Source: Octopus vulgaris
Lineage: Eukaryota
Reading direction: 5' to 3'
NCBI GenBank assembly: GCA_951406725.2
Contig: OX597815.1
Span: forward strand, 124,496,001 to 124,560,000
Length of the DNA: 64,000 nucleotides
Part shown: piece after piece, positions 11,014 through 50,724 of the stretch
Position numbering within the stretch: position 1 is the first letter of the stretch
How the letters are laid out: every line of letters begins with the position of its first letter
Translations under genes and position numbers: made by a program
Notes under the pieces: model-generated
Told to the model about the DNA's origin: nothing
Databases searched by the model: none
The model's input: only the letters and a program-made list of their open reading frames with translations

Positions 11014-11155
11014 TTATTTACATTTGACGGATATTTCTCCTCATCTTGTTTGCTGTTAACACAACATTTCGGCTGATATACTCTGCAGCCTTCATCAGGT
11101 GTCTTGGGGAAATTTCGAACCTGGTTTCTCATTCCTAAGGTATTTTTCAATGTTA
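11014..11155 (-). mobile_element. HH family 2 unit; hammerhead at 11058-11103 has mutated stem III
   Basis: Near-identical to 20095-20240 and the reverse complement of 22575-22715; a + strand 3' fragment lies at 11605-11670. Confidence 0.75.
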
Positions 11156-19060: not shown

Positions 19061-20094
19061 CAAATGTAGTCTTGGAAGGATGCATGATGAGCGTTATTTG
19101 TAATTCAATAGTACAACAGTGTAAGAGTTTGCTTTGAGGTATACTTAGATTGTGATTTCTGCAATGTTGTGCATAAATTGTCAAGTAAAGGAGAAGCATC
19201 TTTGCCTCCACTGGTTCAGTCGCAAAGTGTTATTTTGAGTAAAGTTATTTGGTTGCAGACCTCATTTGAGTATTTTTATTATCACTGGGTCAGAGATAGT
19301 CCCCAGATGGTAAACATTGATTTCAAGGCTTTTCCAGGTATGTGATTGGTCATTCAAAGAGATTTATAGATTGTAAATTTATTCTGTTCAGTTACTTATT
19401 GGCAAAGTGATCATTGGCAAACTCCAGAGGTTACACTTTCATTTCCCCTTAGCCCTCACGTCACACAGTTGTTAATGTTTATTTGAGTTGGGTCACGCCC
19501 TTCCAATTGTTATAGATCCGTAATGCATCTTACGGCTGTGCCGGTTACCTGTATGGTGAGAAATCCTACATTGGGGAGTGGTAACGGCTAGGGTAGGGAA
19601 AGCTGACTGCTTATTGTGATCATTCGTCTTTTGGTTTCCTGTAGCTTTCATTCATATATTTCTGATTTCAAAGGAGTTTGAAGAATAGATCCAAGTTAAA
19701 AAAGATTTCCAACAATTCAACTTCTCTGGTTGACTTTAAGACCTCTCTAATAGGGGCCTTAACTCCCATATTTTAGAGCTCCACGTGCTCTATTATATAT
19801 ATATAATGAGGTAAAAATAGAAAGGGAGAGATATACGATGCAAATCCAATATCAAAATGTCCTCTTTGCTTGTTTAGAAGCTCTTTTACTATCATTCAAA
19901 CCAAAGATTATTTCTGTATGGTATTATGGACGTCCCAGTTTCCAGAGAATTGCAGCTGTCCTCCCAGAAATATATTTACACATCCAATATAGATTTTCAG
20001 GAGCTCTTCATATATCCTGGATATCCGATTATATTCTCCATATCGCACATCTGGTCCATTTTAAAATAGTGCAGCTATTTACGTTATTTTAATA

Positions 20095-20240
20095 TTTACA
20101 TTACTTACATTTGACGGATATTTGTCCTCATATTGTTTGTTGTTAACACAACGTTTCGGCTGATATACCCTCCAGTCTTCATCAGGTATCTTGGGGAAAT
20201 TTCGAACCTGGGTTCTCATTCCTAAGGTATTTTTCGATGT
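20095..20240 (-). mobile_element. HH family 2 unit (hammerhead 20145-20190)
   Basis: Inverted partner of 22575-22747. Confidence 0.75.
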
Positions 20241-20265
20241 TGACAACAACATCGAAAAATACTTA

Positions 20266-20279
20266 TGTTGTTGTTGTTG

Positions 20280-20365
<86 letters not shown>

Positions 20366-20378
20366 AATAATAATAATG

Positions 20379-20455
<77 letters not shown>
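20266..20455. repeat. (TTG)n(TTA)n switching to (TAA)n microsatellite
   Basis: Direct reading; polarity flips near 20362. Confidence 0.95.
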
Positions 20456-20456
<1 letters not shown>

Positions 20457-22435
20457 TGGCCTGGATTGACTACAAAAAGGCGTTTGATAGCATCCCCCAC
20501 ACATGGATCCTCGAAACACTAGCCATTAACAAAGTAGCACCAACAATCATAAAATTCATAGAGTACTCTATGAATAAATGGCAAACAGTCCTACACCTCC
20601 AAACAAAAGAGGGACTCATGAAAACCAAAGACATCCCCATTAGAAGAGGAATATTCCAGGGAGACACGCTCTCTCCACTCCTTTTCTGCATGGCACTGTC
20701 ACCTCTATCTGATATGCTAAATAGAACTGGATGCGGATATAAATGTTACGGCAAAACGATCAGCCACCTTTTATATATGGATGACCTAAAACTATACGCT
20801 GCAAATGACAAACAGCTGGAAACACTATTAAAGACAGTTCATGGATTTACCAAAGAAATAGATATGAAATTTGGATTAGAAAAATGCGCCAAAGTAACCA
20901 TGAAAAGAGGAAAACTAGTTAAGAGTAACAACATCATACTAGATAAAACCAATGAAATAAAAGAATTAGACCAAAGCCAAACTTACAAATACTTAGGAAT
21001 CCATGAACTAGATAAGACACAACACACACAAATGAAAGAGAAAATAAAAAAAGGAATATTATAGACGAGTTAGATCAATACTAAACACAGAGCTCAATGC
21101 TAAAAACAAGATAATAGGTATCAACACTTTAGCTGTCCCAGTTATAAGTTACAGCTACAATATCCTTAACTGGACACGAAATGAACTGACCAAAATAGAT
21201 AGGAAAACAAGAAAAATAATGACAGGATCTAGGATGCATCACCCAAAATCTGACATAGAAAGACTATATATACAACGTATAAAAGGTGGTAGAGGCCTTA
21301 TACAGCTGGAAAACTACTATAAAATAACCACCATAGGACTGCAAAAATATCTACTTCAGAAGGAAGGAAAACTGATCCAGATAGCGGCAAAACACGAGCA
21401 AAACAAAAAACTGTTCTCAGTATTTAAGGAAGCTGACAAATACAAACAAGAAATCATACCACCTAATAAACATGAAGAAGAAGAAGAAGATGAAGAAACA
21501 ACAAAAGCTATAAAACAAATGAAATCCAAACTAAAAATAGAACAGCAACGAACCATGATAAAACGATGGCAAGAAAAGCCCATTCATGGTAAATACTGGA
21601 CTAAACTAAACGCAAAAGAAATAGACAAAGAAAAATCCCAGCAATGGTTGAGAAGCTCAGGACTCAAAGCAGAAACAGAGGGATTTTTAATTGCAGCACA
21701 AGACCAAAGCCTCCCCACCAGAAATTGCCCAAAACATTTAATGAAAAGAAATATTACAAGTAACTGCAGAATATGTGGAGATGGACAAGAAACAATAAAT
21801 CATATTATCTCTAGCTGCCCAGTCCTGGCTAAGAAAGAATATATTCACAGACATGACAGAGTTGGAACCTACATACATTGGAAGCTATGCCAACATTATG
21901 GAATAACAACAGAAAAAAGATGGTATAGGCACACACCAGAAAAGGTCACAGAAAACGAGAAAGCAACCATACTCTGGGATATGCCGATACACACAGATAG
22001 AGAAATTAAGGCCAACAGACCAGATATAGTTGTCAGAGACCATGAAGAAAAAAAAATGCTTTCTAATTGATGTATCAATACCGGCTGATGACAACGTGTC
22101 TCTAAAAGAAATGGAGAAACTCTCAAAATACAAAGACCTGGAAATAGAGGTAACTAGAATGTGGAATCTGAAAACAGAAACAATTCCTATCATAGTAGGT
22201 GCATTAGGCATGATAAAAAAATATTCAGACAAATACTTAACAAAAACACCCGGACTTACAAACACATATAACATACAGAAAATTGCACTACTAGGCACTG
22301 CACACATCCTATGCAGAACACTTTCCATACAATAACCATCAGAGCATCACAACAACTCACAGCACATACCCAAGGCACACAGAGCTGTGCTCGGTAGTGA
22401 AGTGAAAGCACGCTATAAAAATAAAACTACTGAAT
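20456..22435 (+). mobile_element. 5'-truncated Dong/R4-clade non-LTR retrotransposon (RT, CCHC finger, restriction-like endonuclease)
   Basis: WIDYKKAFDSI, RGIFQGDTLSPLLF, HLLYMDDLKL, YKYLG; CRIC..ETINHIISSC..RHD; RPDIV..IDVSIP..EKLSKY; stop at 22335, about 100-nt 3' UTR, (TAA)n on both sides; two +1 shifts in A runs. Confidence 0.92.
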
Positions 22436-22448
22436 AATAATAATAATG

Positions 22449-22563
<115 letters not shown>

Positions 22564-22574
22564 TAATAACAACA

Positions 22575-22747
22575 ACGAAAAATACTTTAGGAATGAGAAA
22601 TCAGGTTCGAACTTTCCCCAAGACACCTGATGAAGGCTGGAGGGTATATCAGCTGAAACGTTGTGTTAACAACAAACAAGATGAAGACTACTATCAGTCA
22701 AATGTAAATAATGTACATAATTCCTCATCTCTTAAATATAGAACTGT
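22575..22747 (+). mobile_element. HH family 2 unit
   Basis: Follows (TAA)n; matches the copies at 11014 and 20095 in the opposite orientation. Confidence 0.75.
22622..22667 (+). ncRNA. Minimal type I hammerhead ribozyme (family 2)
   Basis: GACAC-CTGATGA-A-GGCTG-loop-CAGCT-GAAACGTT-GTGTT; stem III reduced to palindrome AACGTT, GUU site. Confidence 0.6.
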
Positions 22748-23511
22748 ATTACGTTATTTTCTTATAAACGTAGGCAAAACAAAGTATCTCTAATTTTCTT
22801 CTCTGTCCATGTTGTTCTTGTAGTAGTAAATTTGTGGATGTTGAAGAATATCAACTCAGAAGGCTTGTCTCCTCACCAAATTATTAAAAATATCCATAAA
22901 AATAAAGTCACACCATACGTCTTCAAAATAGAGCTTATTGGAAAATGTAATTCTAGATGCATTGCGTCTAACATCATGAAAGACGGGAAGGGCATGATGG
23001 AATGCTTTTTGATCATAAAAGTTACTGTTGGCTAAACGACAACAAAAAAAAAAACGTAAGGCTACAAGCAGCTGCAAGAACGACAGCAATAACAACAGTC
23101 ACACCCCCAGCGTACAGACCCTATAATAACATAAGTAACATTTACATACAGTTGATGAAATCCTTAGAATCCGGTTGAAAATCTGATACTTGCCATTGGG
23201 GGAACCTACTGTAATACATTAACCATTTTAAACTAGCAAATAAAATATCATTATCGTAGTATGTGTGTAGGGGGGTAATGCTCACTATATATTGGATGAA
23301 AATATCAGTGATGAAAGCCTATATCCTTCATAAACCATGAAAGATGAAACGGATCAGCTCATTTGATATTGTGTAGGCGCAATTAAGTCAGTTTTCAGAC
23401 AATGTATATCTATATGTGTACATATTTACATAATGCTAACAATTATATTGAATAAAACATTTCTTTTAAATAAAAGCCAGACATTTTTCATGAGATATGT
23501 ACATATAATAA

Positions 23512-23594
<83 letters not shown>

Positions 23595-23697
23595 TGTGTG
23601 TGTGTAAGAGTGAGCGAGAAAGAAAGAGAGAGAAAGTGAGAGAGACAGAAAGAGAAGAGAAAGAGAGAGAGAGGAAAAGAGAGAAAGAGAGAGAAAG

Positions 23698-23728
<31 letters not shown>

Positions 23729-24070
23729 AAGAGAGAGAGAAAGAGCGAGAGAGAAATTGATAGATAGATACATACATACATAAATGCATACATACGTAAG
23801 TACATACATACATGAATACATACAGATTCATACGCGTAAGGCACTCACATAAACACATACACTCGCACACTTGCACTCACATACACACGCGCACTTGCAC
23901 GCACGCACACATGTACGCACGCACGCACACATACACGCACGCACACATGCACACACACACACACGCACGCACACACACATACATACACACATATATATAT
24001 ATATATATGTATATATAGACACACACGTGTACTTACAGATGAAAATATGCTTGTGCGTGCGTATGTGTGT

Positions 24071-24102
<32 letters not shown>

Positions 24103-24684
24103 AGCATACTATACATTCTCTTCTCTTTTTACTCTTTCTTTCTTCCTCAGCTTCATTCGCTCTATTTCACACTCCCTGATATTGCCTATCCCTCTGTCGA
24201 ACTGTCTGCTTCTTCGTCTGTCTCCCTATTCTGGGAATCTGTCTGCCTCTCAATGTGTTTATGCATATCTGCAAGGAAATAGATCGTAATTTGATATCAG
24301 ATAATGTATGATTTGCACAGCAGTGTGCAGATCTGAAGACATTTTTCAGCCTGCAACTAAGGGCCGTTTGCAGACTTTATATTGCACTCTAGTGTAAAAA
24401 CAATATGCAAGATAGACTATTTGTATTCCGTTTAAGGTTTCTTCAAACTCAAAACCAGAAAGACAATTCGAGACAGAATGTCTGAGAGTGAGAATGAAAG
24501 AGGAAAAGAGAGAGCAAAAGAGAAAGAAACTGAAGAAAAGACAGCCGAGAAATACGTGGAAGCTCGAAAGTTTGAACGAGGGAGAGTGAGGAGATGTGTG
24601 AATGTGAAAGTGTAATCAAGGAATGAAAGAATGAATAAATGAATGAAAGAAACAAAATATGTTTGTGCGCGCGCGTATGTGTGC

Positions 24685-24734
<50 letters not shown>

Positions 24735-24997
24735 AGGTACCTGTACTAATGAATGAAGTGTGAGAAAAGAAGTTTTAAAATGGTTGTTGTATTTATATGC
24801 AGGTATGAGTTTATATATATATATATATATAACGTAAAGTATAGTAGCCATCAATATGGCTAACCACTAGGGGTGGGTGCTACTGTAGCTTTTAGCCCCA
24901 GGAGATCATCGTCTCCAGCTGGCTTTAGGCACACTATCTGTGCCCTCATGGTATTTGCAAAGGTAGGTCATCCCTCTCTCGTAAGCCTAAGTGATTC

Positions 24998-25040
24998 GCA
25001 CGGACTGCAGTTTCGAGGTGTTTGCCTCTTGTCAACGCAC
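24998..25040 (-). ncRNA. Type I hammerhead, U3:A8 core variant (family 4)
   Basis: Minus: GTGCG-TTGACAA-GAGG-CAAACA-CCTC-GAA-ACTGCAGT-C-CGTGC. Confidence 0.75.
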
Positions 25041-25405
25041 GGTAATCACCGGTTTACGATGAAAAGGAAGACCTGTTTGCAAATACTTATGGGTTTTTCT
25101 AGTAACTACTGTCACTGATTTCGAAATACTGTCTGCAAGCAATAATAAATCTCTGAACGAGATGTACACAGTAACCGCTTGACAACGTAAAGTATACTAG
25201 CCATCAATATGGCTAACCACTAAGGGTGGGTGTTACTGTAGCTTTTAGCCCCAGGAGATCATTGTCTGTTACATCTGTTACATCTCGTTCAGAGATTTAT
25301 TATTGCTTGCAGACAGTTTTTTCGAAATCAGTGACAGTAGTTACTAGAAAAACCCATAAGTATTTGCAAACAGGTCTTCCTTTTCATCGTAAACAGGTGA
25401 TTACC

Positions 25406-25448
25406 GTGCGTTGACAAGAGGCAAACACCTCGAAACTGCAGTCCATGC
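25406..25448 (+). ncRNA. Type I hammerhead, U3:A8 core variant (family 4, plus copy)
   Basis: Same motif; one stem I mismatch (CATGC). Confidence 0.7.
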
Positions 25449-25704
25449 GTATCACTTAGGCTTACGAAAGAGGGATGACCGCCCTTTGCAAATGCCATAA
25501 GGGCACATATAGTGTGCCTAAAGCCACCTGGAGACGATGATCTCCTGGAGCTATAAGCGACAGTAACACCCACCCTTAGTGGTTAGCCATATTGATGGCT
25601 AGTACACTTTACGTTGTCAAGCGGTTATTGTTTACATCTCGTTCAGAGATTTATTATTTATATATATATATATATAAGTGACCAAAGTGTACGTACGCAG
25701 TTAT

Positions 25705-26046
25705 ATGTATATAAAAAAGAATGCAAAAAATGGGACAAGAGCGCAACAGGCGACAACAAAACATCCAGACAGTTAGATGATACAAAAAGGGACAAGAAAA
25801 ACAAGGACGGGTCATTCGGAGTTTTCTTCTCTCAGTCGAGTTCAAGATCATCTTTGCAGTTTCGGCTGGTTATACTCGAAACTGCTCCAATCTGGCCACC
25901 CCCAAGGAAAAGCTAAGAGCACTAGATTCCTTGGAAGAAAGCAGCAAATGTATACGAAAACAAGGACGTATAAAAACCGGAGAAAGAGTATACAAATACA
26001 AATGCAAACAAAAGACATTAAGAACAGGTGCCTTTCTTGATTCGAC
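25705..26046. repeat. Unclassified interspersed repeat; second copy at 56159-56575 in the opposite orientation
   Basis: Shared CTCCAATCTGGCCA, AAGGAAAA.CTAAGAGCA, ATGTATACGAAA.CAAGGACG blocks. Confidence 0.7.
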
Positions 26047-26103
26047 TACCATCCGTGCACCATCTATATTCCTTCCCATGCCAGTCATCTCTTCTGTCTC
26101 TGA

Positions 26104-26268
26104 TACTTATTCTATCGGTCTCTTTTGCCTGAGGACGTAACCACACCAATATCTGCTGTCCAGCGATGGTAGGGAGACAAACTCAGACACAAAAGCACAC
26201 GCGTAGGTATAGACACACACACACACACAGAGGTACACACAGAGGTACACACACACACACACACACAC

Positions 26269-26304
<36 letters not shown>

Positions 26305-26327
26305 GTGATAAATAATATATCTATCTA

Positions 26328-26366
<39 letters not shown>

Positions 26367-26512
26367 CGGGCTTCTTTCAGTTTCCGTTTACTAAATCCAC
26401 TCATAAAGTTTTGGTCGGCCGGAGGCTATAGCAGAAGACGCTTGCCGAAGGTGCCACGTAGTGGGACTGAACCTGGAATCATGTGGTTGGGAAGCAAGCT
26501 TCTTGCCACACA
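26104..26512 (-). mobile_element. SINE family A copy
   Basis: Same blocks as 181-640. Confidence 0.75.
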
Positions 26513-27204
26513 TATTTATGTATGTATGTATGTATGTATATTTGATATGTATGTGTCTATGTATGCATATTGATAGTAACTTCAAAGCTTCAGCTTGCTT
26601 TGTTTTCATCGGAAAAGGCCTAAACGTCAAGACCATTCTCAACACTATTCTTGTTCAGGAATAATAAATATGCATGTAGATACGTACATACGTATACACA
26701 ACAAGCTTCTGCACCTTTTCTCTCAACCGAATTCATTCAAAGGTCATTTGTCAGCCCGAGGCTGTAGTAGAAGCCTTTTGTCCTAGATGCTATGTAATTG
26801 GATTGTGTCTGAGTGTACATACTCTCAAGATATATATATATGAACATACCTGCATACATACATACATACATACATACATACGCAGCAAGCTTCTGAACAT
26901 CGCCCTCCACCAAATTGTCCTACACGAAAAAAAAAAATAAATAAAAACTGTCACTGACCAATTTATAAGATAGCATCAACATTGCCCTGTGTTAAGTTTT
27001 ATCAATAATGCATTGTTGATAAAACTTAACATAGAGACAAGATATTTCCGAAAGGTGACTGTGTTTATGACATGGATTAGTGAATAATCGAAGAAAACAA
27101 TCAATCTATTGAAATGTATCTGTTGATCACAACGTAGCTTTCATCTGTTGCAAATCTTGTTGTCATTGTATTACTATTATTATTATTAGTAGTAGTAGTT
27201 GCAG

Positions 27205-27355
27205 TTCTTCTTCTTCTTCTTCTTCTTCTTCTTCTTCTTCTTCTTCTTCTTCTTCTTCTTCTTCTTCTTCTTCTTCTTCTTCTTCTTCTTCTTCTTCTTC
27301 TTCTTCTTCTTCTTCTTCTTCTTCTTCTTCTTCTTCTTCTTCTTCTTCTTCTTCA
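27205..27355. repeat. (TTC)n microsatellite
   Basis: Direct reading. Confidence 0.95.
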
Positions 27356-28379
27356 TCCTTAATCAATCATGTGGTGTCTTTTTAAATTCCCCCTCCTGCC
27401 TCTCATAATTCTTTGTTAGTACACATGCACGCACGCTCGCACACACACATGTACACACATATATATCTTTAACAGCAGGGCATATATTATTCTCACGTCA
27501 TATGACCCTGACGAGATGTTCATCCGAGCATCTGGTGAGTGTCAGGTGAAAGATGTGAACCGGATATAAACCTAACTCTTCAGCTAATCAGCTATGAGCA
27601 GAAAAATAAACTGTTTAGTTAAACCAACACACATAAACACCATCACACCCACACATGGATGGACACACGTAAATGATTAGCTGGATAGAATTGTTTCGGA
27701 GCAAATCAAGAAATATATCCTTTTATTGAATTAATATTTATAGGCATGCCTATATGATTAAGAAGTCTACTTCGCAGCCAGGGATTTTGTGTTCAATCCC
27801 ATGATGTAGCCTCTTGAGCAAAAGTCTTCTACTACAGCCTCGGGCTGACAAATGCCCTTTGAATGAATTTGGGTGAGAGAAAAGGTGCAGAATGTATACG
27901 TATGTACGTACCTACATACATATCTATTATTCATGAACATGAATAGTGTTGAGAATGATCTCGACGTTTAGGCCTTCATAGATTTCAAAAACAGCCCAAT
28001 GAAAGCAAGGCAGGCTGAAGCTTTGGAGTCGCTTTCAATACTGTTCTTGTAGAAAAATATATATGTTATCCACAAATTCCATTCACTATTTGTTCAATGT
28101 AAAATTGTTTGGAGCTTAGTGTGTTTGTCTGTGTGTGCATGTGCCTGTGTGAGTGTGTGTGTTTGTGTGTGTGTGTGTGTGTGTCTGTTTGTGTATGTGT
28201 GTGTGTGTGTGTGTGTGTCTGTTTGTGTATGTGTGTGTGTGTGTGTGTGTGTCTGTTTGTGTATGTGTGTGTGTGTGTTACTGTTTGTTTCTAATTGAAG
28301 TTAGAAAACAAATTTAACATTTAACTAAGGGCTTACTAAATACTTTATAAATAAAATGCATATTCATTAACTCACAACT

Positions 28380-29590
28380 CACAACTTGCTCTTGTTTTTT
28401 TTCTGTGGAAAGTTTACAATGCCATGATACTCAATTGTATCCAGCCGGAGATCGCAAAAATCCTTGTGCGAGTAACCTGAAAGCAATCCTCCTATTTGCT
28501 GACTTTTCTAGGGCCTTTGGCTCGATACACAGAAGAAAAACTGGAAGATATACTTCATGCATATAGTACCCTAAAGGAAACTATTAATTCCATCATGATG
28601 TTGTATAGAAATACCCAGTCTATACTCATCATCCAGATGGTGATACAGTTTTTTGACATAGCGGCTGGTATCCCCCAGGGTGGCATCTTGGCACCCTACC
28701 TGTTCATTATATGTAAAGATTATGTTCTACGTACCTATGTAGATGAAACGAAAGATAAAGGATTCACTCTTCAACCAACCAAAAGCAGACGTTTTCCAGC
28801 TGTGACTAGTACAGATGCTGACTACCCTGATGACTTGGCGCTACTATCAGTAAAAATTTGTGATACAAAGTCTCCCCTGAACAGCATTGAAACTGCTGCT
28901 AAAGGTGTTGGTCTCTACATCAACTCGGACGTGACAGAATATATATATGATGCACATGCCAGAGCGGCAACCTTAACTCCGCATCTGGAAAATCCTTGAA
29001 AAATTTTGGCGAATTCACATACTGCGGAAGTAAAAGCGCAAAGGAAGATCTGTCTACAAGTGACGTTCATGTCTGAATCGGCAAAGCCTGGGCAGCTTTA
29101 CATAAATTATCGACAGTCTGGAAATCTAAGCTGCCATTAAATTTGAAACGTAATTTCTTTCAGGTAGTTTTGCTGTCAGTTCTGCTATAAGGTTGTACAA
29201 CATGAACTCGAAACAATGTGTCTTGAAAAGAAAATTAACGGAACTTATACAAGAATGCTTCGAGCTGCTCTAGGCATCTGGAGGTAACACCCTACAAAAG
29301 AACATCTGTATGGTAATTTACCGGTAATATCACACTTCATAAGAGAAAAAGACAAAATTTGATGGACATTGCTGAGGAGCTATGGGGGAGATCATCAGTG
29401 ACGTTCTTCTTTAGGAGCCGAAATATAGTTATACAAATAATGGTCGACGTCATCGAACCTAAATAAAACAATTGTGCGAGGATTCCAAGTGCACCCAAGA
29501 AGACATACCACGTGCAATAGCAGACCGAATAGACTGGAAAGAACGAGTCACGACAATCCGTGCAATAAGCATGAGCCAAACTGATGACAG
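28380..29590 (+). pseudogene. Decayed RTE-group (RTEX-like) LINE reverse transcriptase and 3' end
   Basis: GIPQGGILAPYLFII..DYVLR..SRRFPA..DADYPDDLALLS..GLYIN; downstream FTYCGS, IGKAWAA, NGTYTRMLR. Confidence 0.8.
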
Positions 29591-30460
29591 CTCGCAAGAC
29601 ACAACTTAGAAGTCACTGTTAAACTTTTCCTTCGAAGCCACAATGACTGTCGGATATGCCAAAACAAAAAGTAGAAAAATTAATTCAATCAGAAACGAGA
29701 CTTGTAAATCATAGAGAAGTTGCTCTGCTTATTACAATATAACTTATACAGCCTGCTATTTAATAGTAGTGTGAAGAGATACACAAGTTTCTAGATTAAA
29801 ACGGAAGACAACAAACCAAATCCAACATCTATATTTGTTACTAAGAGTTCTATTGATACTCTCCGTGTTGTATAACTGCCGGGACAGAGCCAACTAGAAC
29901 TACTTAACAACAGCGATAATGACGACAGCGACGATAACGACCATGATAATAAACAATAACAAATTTTTAGGACATTAGAAAACAGCCATATTTTAGATCA
30001 TTTGTCTGCCAGTACAGAATAAAATTTAAAAATACTTTGAATCATATCAGAACACGAATAAACTACTATGACAGTTGTTTTATTTACCCGTAAGTTAAAT
30101 CTCTTCAAGCTGACCAATGATCAAAAGGCATTCCAGCCTTGACTATTCGGACTTCGTTTTCAACAAGTGTATCGTAGACTACATAACTGAATCTAGGTCG
30201 GTGGATTGTTGGAATATATTAGAGCGCCGGACGAGATATTTCTCAGTATATACTCTACCACTTTGCCTTCTGACAGTAACAATCGCGACTACAATAATGC
30301 AAAGTTATATCGGCTCTTGCCTTACTTTTCTATTCCCTTGGAAAACATCAGTAACGCAGAGAAAGAGAGAGAGGGGGAGAGAGAGAGAAGAGAGAAAGAG
30401 AGAGAGAGAAGAGAGAAAGAGAGAGAGGGATACGGAGAGGGAGAGAGAGAGAGAAAGAGA

Positions 30461-49444: not shown

Positions 49445-50724
49445 TTAGGCTGTCAAGAAAGTTCTTGCGGTTTTTAACCTTTAAATTCAGGTGCACATAT
49501 CTCGGTTCACGCAAAACTTTATTAATCGAAATAAACACCATCAGAATCAACACACTTTTACCAACGCGAAACAAAGTTTATTTATACCAATAGCGTAAAA
49601 ATCTTGCGTTCTGGTGGCGATAGAGTCGTTGAAGGCGTGTTTTGCATTGTCTTGGTTTTTGATGCATTTCTCATGCAGGAAGTTGGCGAGATGCTTTAAA
49701 AAGTGGTAGTTGGTAGGCGAGAGGTCTGGTGAGTATGTCGGATGAGGCAGAGTTTCGTAGCCCAATTCGTTCAACTTCTGCAGGGTCAGTTGTGTGACGT
49801 GCGGCCGAGCGTTGTTGTGGAGAAGAATTGGTCCTTTTCTATTGACCAATGCTGGCTGTTGTTGCCGGAGTTTGTTATACATTTCATCCATTTGCTGACG
49901 GTACTTCTCCGCCGTAATGGTTTCGCCTGGATCCAAAAAGCTGTGATGGATGAGACCGTCCGCAGACCACCAAACAGTCACCATGATCTTCTTTTGGTGC
50001 AACTTTGGCATCGGGAAGTGCTGTGGAGCCTCGTCGGCGTCCAACTACTGAACTGAGCGTCGCCGGTTGTTGTAAAGAATCCACTTTTCCTTGCAAGTGA
50101 CAATCCGGTCGAGAAACGGGTCGTTCTTGTTGCGTATAAGAAGGGAAGACGACACTTGAAATCGGCGTTTTTGGGGTTGTTGTTCAATTCGTGCGTCACC
50201 CATTTCTCAAGTATTTTTGTTTTTCCACTCTCTTTCAAGTGGTTGGAAGTTGTCGTATACGTTACGTCTAATCCAGAAGTAAGCTTTCGAACAGTTGTGC
50301 ATGGATTGGTTTCGGCTAAGGCTCTTAGTTGATCGCTGTCAACATCCGATGGCCGACCACTACGCTTATCATCTTCAAGACTCTCGTCACCGCTACGAAA
50401 TTTCTTGAACCACCATTGTGCTGTACGTTCATCAGTAGTTCCTGGGACAAACGCATCGTTGATATCACGAGGTGTTTCAGCATGTTTTTGGCCTAGCTTG
50501 AACTGGAATAAGAAAATTGTGCGAATTTGCTTTTTGTCCATGTTGTATTCAACGTTCCGGATAAAATGGCCTAATTATTCAAAAAGAAAAAAGAGTAACA
50601 CGATTAGATAGAGCGAAAGATGGGCTATAAAATAATATATACATTTAAAGTAATTTAACGAAAATCAATTTGAAAATACATCATTTAAAACCAAAATTCC
50701 GCAAGAACTTTCTTGACAACCTAA
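49445..50724 (-). mobile_element. Full-length mariner (cecropia/Hsmar1-like), 1280 bp
   Basis: TIRs TTAGGCTGTCAAGAAAGTTCTTGCGG / CCGCAAGAACTTTCTTGACAACCTAA, TA duplication on both sides. Confidence 0.95.
49522..50541 (-). pseudogene. Mariner transposase pseudogene
   Basis: MDKKQIRTIFLFQFKLG..QWWFKKFRSGDESLED..WVTHEL..YSPDLSPT; frameshifts near 50170 and 49575 and internal stops. Confidence 0.92.

Follow-up and report, generated by a model that had tools for sequence, protein, structure and literature searches.

A minimal type I hammerhead with a U3-A8 core pair in a non-coding octopus retrozyme family that retains C3-G8 sister copies

The locus described here, in a 64-kb stretch of Octopus vulgaris DNA (the window), probably holds a minimal type I hammerhead within a 355-base non-coding retrozyme. 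According to this reading, which we hold to be likely, the unit is copied by Penelope-like enzymes, and U3-A8 replaced an ancestral C3-G8 core pair while a predicted self-cleavage by two palindrome-paired copies was kept. The element is a hammerhead-bearing non-LTR retrozyme with a known core variant. U3-A8 was reported in several natural hammerheads in 2011 (PMC3088659) and, in 2014, in some 1,300 Penelope motifs of Schistosoma (PMC4209133; here and below, cited papers are represented by the parts of their text available to us), so that as a core variant it is already known and adds little. The sole new point is that C3-G8 is retained in sister copies of the U3-A8 family, where the switch, along with nearby changes that probably made it possible, can be read.

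Results

Hammerhead anatomy of the window locus

The features of the locus, with the evidence for the motifs in brackets, are as follows.

25405..25449, plus strand: type I minimal hammerhead motif (sequence, copy comparison, dimer fold)
25411-25417, plus strand: core TTGACAA of this copy, U3 = 25411, A8 = 25416
25405-25410 and 25444-25449, plus strand: 5' and 3' strands of stem I (sequence)
25418-25431, plus strand: stem II GAGG/CCTC with a 6-nt loop, GAAA next (sequence)
25435..25442, plus strand: palindromic stem III ACTGCAGT (duplex energy, dimer fold, palindrome kept in sister families)
25443, plus strand: C17, with the predicted cut on its 3' side (sequence)
24997..25041, minus strand: type I minimal hammerhead motif, core 25035-25029 (sequence, topology scan, folds)
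25278..25658, plus strand: right arm, one complete monomer of 355 bp (25278-25632) followed by 27 bases of the next unit
24831..25267, minus strand: left inverted arm, monomer positions 255-354, then 2-338
24810..24830, no strand: (TA)n run on the left flank of the insertion (sequence)
about 25659-25677: (TA)n run on the right flank, matching the left one (sequence)

Both motifs contain the TTGACAA core, stem II GAGG/CCTC, GAAA and a palindrome followed by C, as the first-pass annotation had described, and the U3-A8 pair that it placed in the core is borne out by the sequence. The three-stem junction, the core boxes in order and a UH cut site are all present. The two 45-mers differ by a single base, an A at position 1.2 in the plus copy, which has a C.A mismatch at pair 2.2-1.2, beside the predicted cut site; stem I of the minus copy is paired throughout, including two G.U pairs.

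This full anatomy is not a product of chance. As a bare word, TTGACAA is not enriched in the 64-kb window (12 matches against 18.6 expected). The full family pattern gave 91 exact matches in the genome against 0 for a reversed control, and a descriptor scan of 904 kb gave 0 matches on reversed sequence. TTGACAA also matches the bacterial -35 hexamer, a reading that we dropped as irrelevant in an animal repeat. The core does not fit the strict CUGANGA consensus, U3-A8 being a published exception. Rfam returned no hammerhead at E <= 1 in window positions 20000-30000 and none at the gathering score in five loci, which agrees with the earlier warning that strict-consensus searches miss this family; the matches that Rfam did return were chance, microsatellite-driven ones.

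The two arms are inverted, and 94% complementary over 296 nt, and represent a single insertion. The right arm terminates at about monomer position 30, in what we call the 'tail' end class, and the left arm at about position 338, in the short end class. Because the two motifs lie on opposite arms of one insertion, they record one event and are not independent evidence, so that the agreement of 'both copies', previously offered as separate support, loses its force; nor can two arms of one insertion demonstrate selection, as had been argued from the double change at this locus. The case for selection comes instead from the sister families described below. Because the arms are inverted, a transcript across the locus would contain one sense ribozyme only. 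A target duplication is unreadable here, since matching (TA)n runs occupy both flanks.

Several other features were noted in the window. An unrelated hammerhead-shaped motif at 11055-11106 (minus strand) has the canonical core CTGATGA and one additional A, and its stems I and II are each 5 bp long. A broken LINE-type reverse transcriptase lies at 20147-22070 (plus strand), as an RVT_1 frame and then a zf-RVT frame, both broken up by TTA/TAA microsatellites. A further RVT_1 fragment is found at 28481-28999 (plus strand) and a mariner/Mos1-type HTH transposase fragment at 49978-50574 (minus strand).

The 355-bp repeat and its insertion marks

The repeat unit measures 355 bp, is non-coding and exists in hundreds of copies; no ORF of 150 aa or more covers the window locus. 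A DNA search of the genome (2.8 Gb in 227 contigs) gave 2056 candidates, 40 of which were scored, and a 34-nt anchor outside the ribozyme had 554 exact matches; on one contig (C4, about 13,620,760-13,624,380) roughly ten units follow one another in tandem. Folded as a circle, the monomer reaches -104 kcal/mol, a strong degree of self-pairing when compared with 60 shuffled versions at -78 +/- 4.5 (z -5.9, 0/60). A small non-coding unit within the 170-400 bp range, one type I hammerhead, and both tandem and dispersed copies together place the repeat among non-LTR retrozymes. Genomic copies have diverged by 3.6-4.7% from their subfamily consensus, and many are damaged, the window's plus copy included. 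Assembled contigs from presumed RNA runs indicate presence only; strand, ends and circles are not readable from contigs.

How were these copies inserted? Insertions were sampled at 90 loci for the first 100 anchor matches listed (85 after de-duplication). Among 149 arms, 128 stop at either of two sites, near unit position 338 (72) or near position 30 of the next unit (56), and many arms read through the motif and across unit junctions. The 52 head-to-head pairs comprised 38 with mixed ends, 1 with two short ends, 0 with two tail ends and 13 with an unclassified end; that is, 38 of the 39 classifiable pairs had one arm of each end type. Of 88 family insertions, 31 have target duplications, mostly of 9-12 bp, where shuffled flanks gave 3.3, and 23 adjoin (TA)5+. 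An inverted 5'-truncated arm, two 3' ends (one with a tail) and AT-rich targets are the marks of Penelope-type insertion. This pattern of inverted arm and tail is described in PMC8557442 and was traced to two reverse-transcription start sites in PMC11167929; non-LTR retrozymes, described in PMC7229834, have been tied to Penelope elements in 10.64898/2026.07.22.740005.

Covariation of positions 3 and 8 within the family

Three genome-wide patterns with free positions returned 341 matches, namely 164 U3-A8, 18 with U3 and another base at position 8, and 159 non-U3; these tallies were counted by eye, and the patterns leave out loop variants, the window's own among them. The 182 U3 matches thus comprise 164 U3-A8, 16 U3.G8 and 2 others, and the 100 non-U3 matches listed of 159 comprise 96 C3-G8 and four other combinations found once each. 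Across copies, the bases at positions 3 and 8 are not independent of each other, in keeping with the compensatory change proposed by the first-pass annotation. The single mismatch C3-A8 was seen in 1 of 100 among the matches listed. Similarly, a sample anchored outside the ribozyme contained 63 motif-spanning copies, of which 37 were U-A, 20 C-G, 3 U.G and 3 other. It was through this outside anchor that the C3-G8 subfamily came to light: the apparently invariant core of our first counts (TTGACAA in 87 of 91) was a biased result, because the queries fixed the flanks of the U3-A8 subfamily.

The U3-A8 and C3-G8 subfamilies are 98% alike outside the ribozyme. Because the two states of the 3:8 pair correspond to two subfamilies, we count them as one switch; copies within a subfamily represent one event, and copy counts overstate the evidence. 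At the window locus, positions 3 and 8 form a Watson-Crick U-A pair that covaries with C-G within and between families; their three-dimensional contact is taken from PMC3088659 and PMC9901934. The U3.G8 copies (16 of 341) are a minor state. At two loci (L135 and L140), C3 is found in one arm and U3 in the other arm of the same insertion, which may reflect a mixed template pool or a frequently mutating site.

U3-A8 is less rare than the first-pass annotation had stated. It occurs in about half of this family and, in the same genome, in a second family (F3) and an intact Penelope-like element, both described below, and a descriptor for the variant was published in 2014 (PMC4209133).

Sister families

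Through homology outside the core, we found three sister families and took 20 loci of each, from 49, 47 and 55 listed places. F2 is 76-80% alike and has C3-G8 in 18/18 motifs; F4 is 66% alike and has C3-G8 in 15/16; and F3 is 54-56% alike and has U3-A8 in 26/26, its query having contained the core. F3 and F4 group together with full support and, because the former has U3-A8 and the latter C3-G8, the 3:8 pair must have switched at least twice.

The comparison of families is where selection can be addressed. First, nine core positions are identical in the four family consensuses, against 79 of 199 columns outside the ribozyme. Second, when 38 motifs were aligned, both partners were seen to change in 13 of 15 pairs, across all stems, and 92% of cells pair, against 76% when shuffled (0/500) and 20-50% in slid controls; these motifs are the two window copies and 36 picked by hand from 79 distinct rows found with a core-containing pattern, and their relatedness inflates the counts. 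Third, stem III is a different palindrome in each of the four families, and yet it persists. These observations are consistent with selection on catalysis, which the first-pass annotation had claimed on the grounds of the window locus.

F3 (L221-L240, e.g., L228:1521-1563) appears young, with copies about 98% alike and a unit of about 362 bp, and, judged by eye, has the same two-end insertion pattern. Its core TTGATAA and palindrome ACATGT are those of the intact Penelope-like element. Four further loci (L167, L129, L022 and L155) contain other repeats whose hammerhead-shaped motifs have a CCGACGA or CTGAAGA core and a palindrome of 4 nt.

Penelope-like elements as candidate helpers

If the repeat is mobilised in trans, a Penelope-like enzyme is a candidate. 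Among 150 GIY-YIG matches listed of 6136 candidates, at least 16 lie in open frames of 781 aa, and the eight 781-aa loci that we examined (L181-L188) all encode both RT and GIY-YIG, with a CX4CxxC linker of the Neptune-clade kind (PMC8557442). The terminal repeat of this element ends in a minimal hammerhead with TTGATAA in 34/34 rows (some places being duplicated) and a weak, AT-only stem I. These loci (e.g., L181:2245-4587) appear to form a young Penelope-like family, with the U3-A8 hammerhead about 60 bases from a 3' end that abuts (TA)n. No homology between the monomer and terminal repeats was detected in 50 loci around GIY-YIG matches (from the 150 scored of 6136), and beyond the ribozyme type no homology was seen between the octopus repeat and the intact 781-aa element. 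Retrozyme-like matches near GIY-YIG genes at three loci (L189, L193 and L169) were rejected as terminal repeats, being separate insertions of sister families.

Association with the closing pair of stem II

The subfamilies differ at positions 3, 4, 7, 8, 10.1 and 11.1. Among the C3-G8 copies listed, 96 of 96 lack a Watson-Crick pair at 10.1-11.1 (89 being C.A) and 66 of 96 have C4, whereas among the U3-A8 copies listed 93 of 100 have G-C or G.U at 10.1-11.1 and all have U4. When lineages are counted, all four with U3-A8 (the window subfamily, F3, the 781-aa element and a single motif in L090) have a Watson-Crick 10.1-11.1 pair. Four C3-G8 lineages have a mismatch there (the C3-G8 subfamily with F2, F4, a motif in L068 and the L189 terminal repeat) and three have a proper pair. 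At the lineage level the link is not significant, the mismatch being found in 0/4 U3-A8 against 4/7 C3-G8 lineages. The tie between U3-A8 and Watson-Crick closure of stem II is a new detail that is suggestive only; nothing relevant on a link to a 10.1-11.1 mismatch was found in the limited literature covered.

One of these lineages is of a different kind. The terminal repeat of an ORF-bearing Penelope-like element (L189:4802-4840 region) carries a hammerhead in which position 4 is C and the 10.1-11.1 pair is a U.U mismatch, so that the 'weakened' combination also exists in a coding element.

We speculate, tentatively and with more doubt than confidence, that this is a natural epistasis, in which U3-A8 works only with Watson-Crick closure of stem II and C3-G8 tolerates a mismatch (and U4C), and that the switch has been caught midway, with rare intermediates. 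If true, the epistasis would account for the inactivity of U3-A8 in certain laboratory hammerheads despite its frequency among Penelope-type ones. In a type III hammerhead scanned for all pairwise changes, the G3-C8 swap alone among the double mutants rescued activity (PMC9901934), and earlier in vitro activity for covarying 3:8 pairs is cited in PMC3088659. The subfamilies constitute a natural experiment, from which a few constructs could reveal the context that permits U3-A8 cleavage, and whether an efficient ribozyme is required at all for retrozymes to spread.

Predicted dimer folding and cleavage

The monomer alone is unremarkable, its 70-mers folding with z of -0.6 and -0.9 and without stem III. 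In the prediction, the palindromes of two ribozyme copies join in an 8-bp helix, with a stem III duplex of -11.1 kcal/mol, and the double hammerhead comes out as the most stable structure for two copies, lower by 7-10 kcal/mol than a pair of monomer folds. In these models, a short palindromic stem III pairs between copies, as in dimer-type minimal hammerheads.

Might the hammerhead fold be kept for another reason? It could be that cleavage is weak or irrelevant for spread, that the motif serves the Penelope protein for binding or folding, or cuts only with its help, and that positions 3 and 8 are held by structure. We regard this as unlikely, although several observations point to it. Arm 5' ends show no accumulation at the predicted cut site (1/149 at positions 166-169, about 2 expected), and the many arms that cross the motif and the unit junctions fit the same idea. 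The C3-G8 subfamily, with U4C and a stem II mismatch, has spread as well as the U3-A8 one, being about as numerous, and an optimal ribozyme is therefore not needed for spread. In addition, the ribozyme of an anole Penelope element cut only with protein and was dispensable for insertion, which proceeded in vitro independently of hammerhead cleavage (PMC11167929), and eight of nine frog retrozyme dimers did not cleave (10.64898/2026.07.22.740005). Against this, families whose similarity elsewhere is just 52-80% retain G12, A13, A14, the palindrome and the U16.1-H17 site, which fits catalysis better than a generic scaffold, and circular templates would likewise yield no pile-up of 5' ends. The predicted self-cleavage by paired copies remains our preferred reading.

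A seeming concentration of 5' ends at the cut site disappeared once they were mapped exactly. Separately, monomer positions 162-165, which precede the predicted cut by 2-5 nt, hold 8 of 149 arm 5' ends where the local expectation is about 2.4, a post hoc observation.

Direction of the switch

The C3-G8 subfamily and F2, the nearest outgroup, share the core pair, the C.A mismatch at 10.1-11.1 and flanking sites, and one copy (L101) is intermediate between the two. These common sites suggest that C3-G8 is ancestral in this retrozyme family. A tree of copies built without the ribozyme was mostly unresolved, with within-family support of 40-50, and midpoint rooting placed C3-G8 copies inside U3-A8 ones, without support.

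This unsupported nesting would suit a different history, in which U3-A8 was gained by template switching from F3 or an autonomous Penelope repeat, or was itself ancestral, so that the stem II link reflects shared descent and not functional coupling. The TTGATAA core and ACATGT palindrome common to F3 and the 781-aa element suit it as well, as do the mosaic copies, 4 of the 100 U3-A8 copies listed having the other subfamily's A at 11.1. Nevertheless, loop II, stem I and stem III of the family are unlike those of F3 and of the Penelope motif, and the pair, mismatch and flanking sites shared with F2, together with the intermediate copy, speak against it; we consider such a history improbable. Replacement of C3-G8 by U3-A8 within the family is the direction that we favour.

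It is very improbable that the motif is a dead relic, a decayed ancestral ribozyme whose double change drifted in an amplified master copy: core conservation within the U3-A8 subfamilies is not significantly above background (5/442 vs 183/7285, p = 0.078) and many of the diverged copies are damaged, but two independent lineages and an ORF-bearing element reached the Watson-Crick alternative, the C3-A8 mismatch is all but missing among the matches listed, and all stems covary across families.

Discussion

How might such an element spread? In the model that we propose, tandem loci would be transcribed, and adjacent hammerheads would swap strands to form the 8-bp stem III. A slow cut after C17 would release 355-nt monomers, which may circularise. 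A Penelope RT-endonuclease would then prime on multimeric or circular RNA at two sites, some 47 nt from each other, and the cDNA would be put into AT-rich DNA. The change to U3-A8 would have come with repair of the first stem II pair, from C.A to G-C, and this repair may make the weaker U-A pair workable.

We found no description of this retrozyme family in the literature on octopus or other cephalopods that we covered, and PMC6765202, PMC6155905, PMC2837043 and PMC2920678 provided background only. Four known systems invite comparison. The natural core variants of Perreault et al. 2011 (PMC3088659) include U3-A8, a U.U mismatch at 10.1-11.1 and a tolerated U4C viroid variant, as in the octopus elements, and the available text of that paper holds no link between the 3:8 pair and 10.1-11.1. 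The Penelope-like elements with a C-terminal GIY-YIG domain (Craig et al. 2021, PMC8557442; Frangieh et al. 2024, PMC11167929) resemble the octopus repeat in having partial tandems truncated at the 5' side, an inverted 5' arm, a tail that is not always present and stems from two RT start sites, and AT-rich targets, whereas the repeat has no ORF and a tail of about 47 nt in place of 30-40.

The metazoan non-LTR retrozymes (350-390 bp in mussel, 330-350 nt in axolotl; Cervera and de la Pena 2020, PMC7229834) are like the octopus unit in having a non-coding 170-400 bp monomer with one type I hammerhead, tandem and dispersed copies, low GC, a strongly self-paired circle and a dimer-type stem III. 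The octopus family differs from them in having U3-A8 in half of its copies, in that its cleavage and circles are predicted only, and in the inverted-arm, two-end insertion pattern documented here, of which the available text on those retrozymes gave no sign. Finally, the Penelope-like hammerheads of Schistosoma mansoni (Cervera and de la Pena 2014, PMC4209133) have the same U3-A8 covariation and a short palindromic stem III, often lie 100-700 bp apart on opposite strands, and are missed by the standard descriptor. In contrast to these, the octopus hammerhead has a 4-bp stem II, no extra base after A9 and a non-coding tandem carrier, and both states of the 3:8 pair coexist in one octopus family whose copies are 98% alike outside the ribozyme.
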